A DNA stretch of 64,000 bases from Lama guanicoe (Eukaryota). Position numbers and translations under genes: made by a program. The notes under the pieces are model-generated. The model saw only the letters and a list, made by a program, of their open reading frames with translations. It did not search any database and was not told the origin of the DNA. Shown one piece after another: positions 5,811 through 57,376 of the stretch (position 1 is the first letter of the stretch; each line of letters starts with the position of its first letter). Location of the stretch: assembly GCA_013239625.1 (NCBI GenBank), contig MU053216.1, positions 744,001-808,000 of the forward strand, written 5' to 3'.

Positions 5811-6896
5811 CTCTTCCCCTTTTGTCCCCCCGCCACATCCCCTGGACACAGATCTCCTGATCTCCTGGGCTGTGGGACGGCCCCAGGCCCAGCCGCGGTG
5901 GGTAGGGCACAAGGCAGAGGAGAGGGGCTTCTTGCTTCTGTTAAGATTCTTTCGGTCCCCAGTTCCCCAGCTGTGGGGACAAGGGCTTGATGGGGCTTCT
6001 CACCGGCCGGGAAGCTCATGGCTGACCGACCAAGGTTTTGGGAAGAGACAGAGAACACCCAGAGACGGAGAGAGCTGCTGTTGAAATGCCCTGGCGGAGC
6101 CTCTTCCTCCTGCCCGACTTCAAGGGGAGCCCTGGGCCTGACAGCTGGGCTCCCTAGATGGGAAGAGCGGAAGAGGCGCCTGAAACGACCACGGAAGTCG
6201 CAGCCGCACTGCCTTTTGTGCAAACACTTGGAAGCCCTGCAGATCCGGCTCAGCTGGTGTTTACAGCCTGGGGGAGAATGGCTCCCATGTTCTCCGTCTG
6301 CAGCTTGGCCCCAGGGGAGAGGCCACCGCCCAGTCCGGGAAGCACCTCTTTTCTTTCCGCCTCATGGGTGGAGAAACCCAAGCTGAGGGGCTGTGCTCGG
6401 ACAGGCCGAGGGCCTCCGCCTATAGCTCAAGGGTCCAAGGACACTGCTGAGAAAAGAGCCTCCAAGAACCAGGCTGGGGTCTCAGTGTCACGTCCCAGCC
6501 GGGCCTGTCGCTAGCTCTGCACTGCCCAGTCCAGTGACGGACGCGCCCAGGGCAGAGGCAGAGGGTTCCCGGATGGATGACTGTGACCCGTGACTCCTCC
6601 CGCCCACGGCCGAGGTGAGGTTGTTCCCACCTCCACTGAGCACCTCCCACTGACAATCTTTTCTTCTTTCTCCAGGGACTTCAAAGACCAGCAGACGTGA
6701 ACGCCTTCACACCCATTCGCCAGGGCGGGGGCAAAAGCGGTTCTTTACAGACACCCAGACTCAGAGGGGGAGAAGGCCTGTCCCCACGTCGAGGCCCACA
6801 GGACAGACAGCTCATGAGGCAGCTCCCTGCTGCGGGAACACATCTAACTTAGGGCCAGACAACCAGCTGGCCCGTCCCCGACTCGCCGGGACTCAC

Positions 6897-6974
6897 GTTG
6901 GCGGAAAGCTGGGACGTCAAGGTGGCCACTTTTTCCTGGGATGATTCCAGTTCCCTTCGGAGCTTCCGGATTTG
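6897..6974 (-). CDS. NAV1: NAV1 coding exon (QIRKLRRELESSQEKVATLTSQLSAN), 78 nt, coiled coil
   Basis: Acceptor ccacag|CAA and donor AAC|gtgagt. Confidence 0.96.
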
Positions 6975-7084
6975 CTGTGGAGGAAGAGAGACAGCAACTG
7001 ATGGTGGCAGCAGACGTGGTTAAGGTCGGGAAGGAGACGGGGCGCGGTGGTGTTAACAAGCGGGACGAGGGCTCGGCACCCTAC

Positions 7085-7108
7085 CTCAGACTGCATCCTC
7101 TCCTCAGC
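7085..7108 (-). CDS. NAV1: NAV1 24-nt microexon (AEERMQSE)
   Basis: ttctgcag|GCTGAGGAGAGGATGCAGTCTGAG|gtaggg; symmetric phase 0. Confidence 0.94.
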
Positions 7109-7778
7109 CTGCAGAAGGGAGCACGGGAGGAGAGAGAGAGAGGAGGCGGTTACTCCGGGGGTGGAGGGTGGGCAGAGGACTCGAGGAAGCGTGACCAGAG
7201 GCGCGAAGAGGCTGCAACCCTGTCTCCGGCCCTGGCTGCTCGCGGGTGGCTCAGACCCCACGCCACGCTCTAATAAAAGACTTCTCCTGAGCCTGTCTCC
7301 AGCCAGCTTTGTCATCGCCAAGAAGGCTGGGCAGTGGGACCTCCGCTGACCTGGAGACCGACCCTTACGGCCACCGATCTGGAGCGAAGCACTGGGGGCA
7401 GAGTGAGCCCAAGAACCAACCGACACTGAACAGCCCAAGGAGGGGACGCTCGCGCGCTGCTAGGTTCCGAGGCCCTGGGAAGCCACCCTCTCACCCTGCT
7501 GTGGGCGCTGCCCGCGCCCCAAGCACAGAGCACCTCTCCAACACAGGGTCCAACATGCGTTCTTCAGAGGAGGGGCACAGAAGGCAGCAGAGCTGCTCGG
7601 GAACTGGCGGCGAGGCCAGAAAGACCCCTCACTGAGGGTGCCAGGCGTCCCCACCCCACCCCGATCCGGGCGTGGCCGAGACAGCTGCGCCTGCCCCTGC
7701 CCAGCCCTCACCCCCGGGGGGCTCTGGGCGCAGCTGGGGGGGGGTGTGCAGCGGGGAGGGAGGGGGTAGTGTTCTTAC

Positions 7779-7801
7779 TGAGGAGTAAGTGGAGGAATGA
7801 A
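7779..7801 (-). CDS. NAV1: NAV1 23-nt exon (V-HSSTYSS), apparently shortened by 30 nt
   Basis: ttctcttgcag|TT CAT TCC TCC ACT TAC TCC TCA|gtaaga. Phase 1 to 0 bridges the flanking exons exactly. Confidence 0.88.
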
Positions 7802-8794
7802 CTGCAAGAGAAGCAGAACACGGAGTTAACGGGGGGGCTCAGAGACGGGGAGGGGGTCGGGAGTTTGGATTCTGACAGCAGGGCACCTGGAACAAACAGA
7901 ACAGAACATGCACTCAGCTGGATCACAGCCTGGGCGGGGCTGTCAGCGGAGGACCGAGGGCTGAGGCCGGGGCAGAGCCGGCCTGCAGAGCCGGCCTCCT
8001 CCTGCGGCCCAGCGGGACCCCCGGCAGCCCGCTCCTCTGAGGGCAGGCGAGGGCGCGAGGGCTAGGGGAGGGAGAAGAGGTGCTCGCGGACAGGTGCTGC
8101 CTCCTCCTCCCGGGCAGGAAGGGCGGTTTCTCATCAGAGCTGCTCAGAACACACCTACAGTTGTGCCCGAGGGTCCTCTTCCTGGTGGGGCCACTCGGGT
8201 GGAGGAAGACCCACGTGCAAGACACCCCTCCCGATCACTCAGGAGCCAGAACCACAGCCCTGCGTCGAGAGCGAGCCCGTCTGCGAGGAATGGCTCCAGG
8301 GACGGGTCCTGAACACCTCGGGGGTGGAGCCCCCAGCACGCCGGCTCTGCCAGCTCCGACCGCAAACACCCAGACCACCGAAGCCCAGAGCGCCGCCCTG
8401 AAGCTGGTCTCTGGAACGTTCTTGAAAGAGGAGTGAGATGCCTAACTCTGCAAAGATTTGAGCTGCCTCTGTGTCCCTGTGAGTTTCGTGTCCCCTGAAG
8501 GGCCAGGAGGGCAGGAGCCTTCTGAGACTCTGGGGCCACGGAACCTTCCGGCTGTTCCCTGCCCCCTCCAGGAGCTGCTCCACCCCAAAGCCCCAGTGCT
8601 CGACGGTGCCACCCAAGGTTTCTGGGCCCCTAGACCATTCGAAGTGATGGGAAGAAAGAGCTGAAATGGCCCGACTGGATGTCCTGGGAATCACACATGT
8701 GCGTAAACGTGGCGGTGGTGGTGGTGGAGGTGGGGGCGGAGAGGGGCCCAGCAGAGCCGGAATGAGCGTGAACCGCGCTGGCATGAAGTCTCAC

Positions 8795-8965
8795 CGTCGT
8801 CCGTGGGGTCTCGGAAGGATCCTGACCGAATCATCCCCTTGGGTCTGTCGGCCAGGGACAGGGTGCTCCCCATTTGGGAGCCGCTGTACAGCTCGAAGGC
8901 GGCCTCGTGGGTGGGGATGCTGTTGGAGCGGGTGATTCTTGGCGCGGTGGCCGCAGTGGGGCTCA
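8795..8965 (-). CDS. NAV1: NAV1 coding exon (VSPTAATAPRITRSNSIP...SFRDPTDD), 171 nt
   Basis: Acceptor ttccag|TG and donor ACG|gtgaga; matches ORF 8691..8966. Confidence 0.96.
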
Positions 8966-11747: not shown

Positions 11748-12172
11748 CTGTCCAGCTGTCCGGTCCTGGGGCTTCCGCTCCAGCTCATCTCTTCCGCGTC
11801 CTCCTCGGCGGGGGCGGCGGGGGGGGTGGACTGCTGGGGGTGGCGCCAGGCAGGCTCATTGGCAGCTGCTGGGACTCCATGCTCCTGTGCAGGCCTGAGA
11901 GCTTGGGGTACATGCGCGTCTCCCTGGGGACGCTGAAACCACTCATGAGCTCCAAGCCCTGGGAGAAGCTGGCCGAGTTGATGTTGAGAATCGGGGCCGG
12001 ACTAGGGCTAAAGCACGAAGTGGGGGTGCCTCCAGCAGCTGGGCCCGGAGCCTGCAGATCCGGCACCTTTGAAGCGTGGGTGTCACTGGATGACGGAAGG
12101 TCCAGACTGTTAGAATTGACCTTGTCCAGACTGGCCAGTGACGGCGGCTTGACAAAGCTCTTGGCTGTGGCC
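11748..12172 (-). CDS. NAV1: NAV1 coding exon (ATAKSFVKPPS...SWSGSPRTGQLD), 425 nt, with apparent frameshift at the G8 run 11819-11826
   Basis: Acceptor cctcag|G and donor CAG|gtaggt. Phase 2-2 requires a multiple of 3, but the length is 425. The conserved reading AAPAEEDAEEMSWSGSPR resumes in another frame. Confidence 0.9.
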
Positions 12173-57096: not shown

Positions 57097-57376
57097 GGGC
57101 AGGCTGGGGGGGCGGGGCCAGGAGGGGCCAGGCTGGGAAGGGAGGGGCCAGGAGGGGGCCANNNNNNNNNNNNNNNNNNNNNNNNNNNNNNNNNNNNNNN
57201 NNNNNNNNNNNNNNNNNNNNNNNNNNNNNNNNNNNNNNNNNNNNNNNNNNNNNNNNNNNNNNNNNNNNNNNNNNNNNNNNNNNNNNNNNNNNNNNNNNNN
57301 NNNNNNNNNNNNNNNNNNNNNNNNNNGCCAGGGCCAGGCGGGGCCAGGCGGGGGGGCGGGGCCAGGCTGGGGCCGC
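57097..57376. repeat. G-rich GGGGCCAGG minisatellite spanning an assembly gap (N at 57162-57326)
   Basis: The same GGGGCCAGG unit occurs on both sides of the 165 Ns. Confidence 0.88.

Follow-up and report, generated by a model that had tools for sequence, protein, structure and literature searches.

A 23-nt NAV1 exon in a guanaco genome assembly lacks ten conserved codons, probably through assembly error

Neural microexons are typically frame-preserving in length, and those of the SRRM4 type have a UGC enhancer that closely precedes the 3' splice site. For neural microexons under SRRM4, the available text of 10.64898/2026.05.02.722430 gives lengths of 3-27 nt. Exons can also appear altered for technical reasons. 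According to the accessible part of PMC9516821, false indels of short-read assemblies occur in GC-rich DNA, and Illumina assemblies show fewer frameshifts than assemblies of Sanger reads. Illumina indel errors increase in homopolymers and are mostly of a single base, as described in the available portion of PMC3334598. The published assemblies of llama, guanaco and vicuna were built from short reads, as stated in the accessible text of PMC7331169.

NAV1 is a one-to-one orthologue across 11 species in the available text of PMC12127551, where it is absent from the indel table of Old World camels, the New World list lying outside that comparison. The gene is also absent from the supplement of PMC10873959 and goes unmentioned in the accessible text of PMC7331169. 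Nothing on point was found, in the parts of the literature available to us, on a NAV1 microexon or on a change in camelid NAV1. Here we describe a NAV1 exon of 23 nt in a stretch of 64,000 nt from Lama guanicoe, hereafter the window (assembly GCA_013239625.1, contig MU053216.1, positions 744,001 to 808,000), and we weigh the explanations for its length.

The NAV1 gene and its exons as assembled

Mapping of C. ferus NAV1 placed 30 exons in collinear order on the minus strand, in the window and in the sequences L002, L003, L005 and L011. These 30 collinear exons establish that the gene is the NAV1 orthologue. The exon upstream of the short one (8965-8795) matched NAV1 of both C. ferus and C. dromedarius with 100% identity and that of most other mammals with 96%. 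At the other end of the gene, C. ferus XP_032322779.1 carries C-terminal ubiquitin-like and AAA+ lid domains (PF23092, PF25408), and the exons matching these domains were 96-100% identical in L002 and L003. All mapped exons except two lesions were open and about 98-100% like those of camel, the first exon being about 93% like camel, with scattered substitutions relative to camel NAV1. Decay of the gene was rejected as an explanation because all the other mapped exons are open and near-identical to camel, NAV1 being otherwise intact. The coordinates of the features are collected in Table 1.

Table 1. Coordinates in the window of the NAV1 exons, lesions and G runs discussed in the text
Feature	Position	Strand	Remarks
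NAV1 exon	7779..7801	-	23 nt, encodes V-HSSTYSS, phase 1 to 0; orthologues have 53 nt
Junction of the missing 30 nt (GSVLSLASSA)	7796..7797	-	from comparison with C. ferus, C. dromedarius and human NAV1
Upstream NAV1 exon, ...RSGSFRDPTDD	8795..8965	-	100% identical to camel
AEERMQSE exon	7085..7108	-	24 nt, frame-preserving, alternatively used across mammals
Downstream exon, QIRKLRRE...	6896..6974	-	start of the confident coiled-coil helix
Second NAV1 lesion	11789..11838	-	50 nt against 20 camel codons (60 nt), frameshift, G8/C8 run at 11819-11826
G9 run	7736..7744	+	closes the G-quadruplex-like stretch 7716-7744; junction 52 nt away
G7 run	7831..7837	+	34 nt from the junction, on its other side

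On the minus strand the short exon is preceded by a pyrimidine tract and a CAG acceptor and followed by a GTAAGA donor. It bridges the phase-1 donor of the exon 8965-8795, which ends in DPTDD, and the 24-nt exon 7108-7085, and splicing as assembled gives an open joined frame (...RDPTDD-VHSSTYSS-AEERMQSE-QIRKLRRE...). The first-pass annotation of this DNA had named the gene as NAV1 and had placed the exon at 7801-7779 with the translation V-HSSTYSS and intact splice sites, and it was right on all of these. The locus is present once in the assembly (2.05 Gb, 55,231 pieces), and no second haplotype contig is present there. The 23-nt exon with 30 nt missing is confirmed as assembly text. Among the phase-compatible AG..GT candidates in the intron, the donor of the 23-nt exon was the best, and it is shared with a 59-nt version of the exon that begins from a further-upstream AG; the 59-nt version was rejected as not homologous. 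The QIRKL exon has CAG-CAA at its acceptor. We used the CAG at 6977-6975 as the acceptor; read as coding sequence, it adds one Q.

The 24-nt AEERMQSE exon is a real, ordinary conserved alternative microexon. In 282 proteins it was included in its plain form in 133 and skipped in 68.

The second lesion amounts to a shortfall of 10 nt near camel codons 912-931, with the changes L>Q and L>M nearby. The NAV1 reading frame is consequently broken at 11789-11838 as assembled, and this frameshift is likely an error. At face value, the shift would cut NAV1 short ahead of the coiled coil and the AAA+ domain. Near 11830 lies a Pro-rich stretch in which camel NAV1 is three residues shorter than human NAV1, and the length of the stretch thus varies naturally.

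Conservation of the exon and of its Ser-rich motif

The full 18-residue exon is kept in Camelus ferus (XP_032322779.1), C. dromedarius (KAB1258651.1), human (Q8NEY1) and kiwi, and the orthologous exon was found in every NAV1 isoform spanning the region. The ten lost residues, GSVLSLASSA, correspond to human NAV1 1058-1067. Full VHGSVLSLASSASSTYSS was present in 118 of 120 homologue matches; the other two were intron read-through fragments, and none was short. The exact peptide occurred in 263 and the short form in none of the 430 proteins compared, many of which are isoforms of one species. Both flanks of the exon were present in 220 proteins, with 219 exact matches and one full-length variant.

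Neither llama, alpaca, guanaco nor vicuna was represented by a NAV1 protein among the homologues retrieved or among the cluster members listed for 20 proteins, large clusters being listed to the extent of 15 of 28 and 15 of 32 members. No camelid-derived fragment appeared among 409 candidates obtained with the overlapping plus-strand frame as query, and a pattern fitting both exon lengths matched 0 stretches in metagenome contigs. Part of the region 6900-8900 was present in 20 of 24 public runs, 14 of them DNA runs from four closely related organisms with 0.81-0.94 of the words, a kind of share that cannot resolve a 30-nt change.

The conservation extends beyond NAV1. Of 150 representative proteins, 52 span the region, and GSx[LIVM]SL was found in 31 of the 52, some of which are only 35-55% identical to the query. 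We take the distant motif-bearing sequences to be NAV2, NAV3 or invertebrate Navigators. In alignment A1, S76 is invariant and S73, L77, S79 and S82 are nearly so across 43 rows, made up of four NAV1 sequences and 39 of the 52 region-spanning proteins, the 13 omitted ones including those without the motif. Four of these five positions fall inside the lost segment. The first-pass annotation had stated a 53-nt exon for human NAV1, which is borne out by Q8NEY1, and a similar motif just before the coiled coil of paralogous Navigators, which agrees with the 31 of 52 representatives, distant Navigators included. It had also stated that a short form widespread in mammals would refute its reading, and none was found among the 430 proteins.

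Nine of the 18 exon residues are Ser or Thr. In the AlphaFold model the lost segment has a pLDDT of about 50 and stands directly before a helix at residues 80-174 that is predicted with confidence from about residue 90 onward. Judged from the alignment and the model, the segment is most plausibly a conserved linear motif heading the coiled coil. The pattern GSx[LIVM]SL..S..S..YS appears to be a functional site not yet characterised, and from its composition it is likely phosphorylated. The deep conservation of the motif makes its fixed loss improbable a priori.

The described sites of Navigators map to other regions. The actin-binding region of NAV1 (aa 424-762) and its SxIP motifs map elsewhere in the accessible text of PMC7480110, the EB1 sites lie outside the lost segment in that of PMC9877351, and the 14-3-3 site of NAV2 maps to aa 761-960, also outside it; so the deletion hits no known site. 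The Ser-rich motif (human NAV1 1057-1072; P0004 residues 71-86) seemingly has no described function in the available text of PMC9877351.

Origin of the missing 30 nt

Assembly error is the probable source of the 30 missing bases, and the animal's NAV1 likely keeps the ordinary 53-nt exon. This explanation, drawn from sequence context, is the likeliest because G runs neighbour the exon and two similar lesions occur in the assembly. Short reads may have failed or disagreed at the G runs, the assembly graph may have broken there, and the ends may have been rejoined with 30 bases dropped; such a loss would be in frame by chance in one case in three. The 23-nt exon shares its error-prone GC-rich and homopolymer context with the other lesions. 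One contig of the independent run X11 stops at the final G of the G9 run (7744), which points weakly to a break of assembly graphs at this place. Over 7450-8150, four DNA runs gave one contig and left the exon uncovered; this hole is no evidence, because a filter can drop such contigs. Since no read was seen over the exon, we infer the error.

One of the two similar lesions is the frameshift in NAV1 itself. The other is in an ORP3-like gene (G000:C1600, L012:6848-6960) that lacks 12 codons: the alignment to ORP3 leaves off at residue 214 in one exon and resumes at residue 227 in the next, a C18 run stands just before the acceptor, and the 109-nt intron holds no exon. Like the NAV1 deletion, this is a clean in-frame loss from a conserved exon adjoining a G/C homopolymer in the same assembly. 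The two differ in position, since the ORP3-like gene lacks 36 nt at the exon start, directly at the C18 run, whereas the 30 nt absent from NAV1 are internal to the exon, with shorter runs at distances of 34 and 52 nt. Both N gaps seen (window 57162-57326; L009:6461-6522) also adjoin G-rich tracts. In 28 NAV1 exons, 309 of 5,497 coding bases (5.6%) lie at most 60 nt from a G/C run of at least 7, and both lesions are included in this fraction. At the exon level, lesions were present in 2 of 8 exons near a run and in 0 of 22 others (30 exons; p about 0.064), a weak and post hoc enrichment, as the run thresholds were chosen after the data had been seen.

Several features tell against assembly error. 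The deletion is clean and in frame and spares both splice sites. The mostly single-base size of Illumina indel errors and the lower number of frameshifts in Illumina than in Sanger assemblies likewise speak against it. The second NAV1 lesion may combine a real 9-nt loss in the variable Pro-rich stretch with a one-base homopolymer slip, which would be a more trivial kind of error. The ORP3-like deletion weakens the case as well, because it is itself seen in assembly text alone.

The missing codons had been attributed by the first-pass annotation to a loss in this lineage or allele, with assembly error left unweighed. If it is taken to be camelid-wide, the loss is contradicted by the full exon of C. 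ferus and C. dromedarius, and a camelid-wide loss was rejected since both Old World camels keep it. What may remain of the claim is a narrower loss, which we rank below assembly error.

Such a loss could be a deletion allele in the sequenced animal, private or polymorphic and probably heterozygous. We regard this as possible, though on the whole unlikely. The allele would strip the first conserved coiled coil of the disordered Ser-rich motif at its head, which is likely a docking site controlled by phosphorylation, while the coil itself, the EB1 motifs and the AAA+ domain would be spared. The clean in-frame loss and the intact splice sites speak for such an allele, and with the segment predicted to be disordered (pLDDT about 50) ahead of the helix 80-174, folding of the protein would be preserved. 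There is a G-quadruplex-like tract at a distance of 52 nt, and G-rich tracts can promote real deletions too. However, the segment contains S73, S76, L77 and S79, positions that are invariant or nearly so in A1, whose rows were picked from those showing the region. A second haplotype contig, moreover, is absent from the assembly, and a real allele would leave the frameshift in the same gene unexplained.

It is improbable that the change is fixed in South American camelids or in the species, a constitutive 53-nt exon having become a frame-shifting 23-nt microexon beside the 24-nt one. Camelid NAV1 has diverged somewhat elsewhere, one exon showing 99% identity to camel and about 91% to the exon of other mammals, and the Pro-rich stretch is already 3 residues shorter in camels. 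Yet the exon is invariant in 219 of the 220 spanning proteins, Old World camels included, and is recognisable in distant Navigators, and similar losses adjoin G/C runs in this assembly. Most likely the short exon is not a fixed trait of the animal's genome. Were it real and fixed, an unstudied, deeply conserved linear motif heading the Navigator coiled coil would have been knocked out naturally, and a microexon would have arisen by internal deletion, which is rare. NAV1 would then be made where the microexon is spliced in and would be subject to nonsense-mediated decay where it is skipped.

That the ten codons moved to a separate exon or to a second copy of the locus is very hard to credit and was rejected, as a matching peptide occurs in no frame of the intron, a degenerate peptide pattern gave 0 matches in the whole assembly, and there is a single locus only.

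Comparison with known systems

The closest counterparts are NAV1 of camel (XP_032322779.1, KAB1258651.1) and of human, in which the gene, the exon order and the flanking exons are the same as in the window. They differ from it in that camel and human NAV1 have the full 18-residue exon, whereas NAV1 of the window lacks ten residues and is frameshifted.

The exon resembles SRRM4 microexons in its length of 23 nt, its strong splice sites, its 24-nt alternative neighbour and its place in a neuronal cytoskeletal gene. Unlike them, it is not conserved as a microexon (0 of 430 proteins) and its length is not a multiple of three; as it runs from phase 1 to phase 0, its skipping would shift the frame. 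TGC occurs at -14 and -5 of the exon, the copy at -5 being part of the acceptor, in a count made without a control.

If the missing bases are an assembly error, as we favour, other exons of this assembly that lack codons cleanly and in frame next to G/C runs deserve distrust. The errors in the accessible text of PMC9516821 were proved against long-read assemblies of the same animals, whereas the present one is deduced from assembly context, and clean losses of 30 nt are absent from the descriptions given in that text. The likeness to the false indels described there lies in the GC-rich context, the coding indels, the otherwise intact conserved gene and the fragmented assembly of 55,231 pieces.
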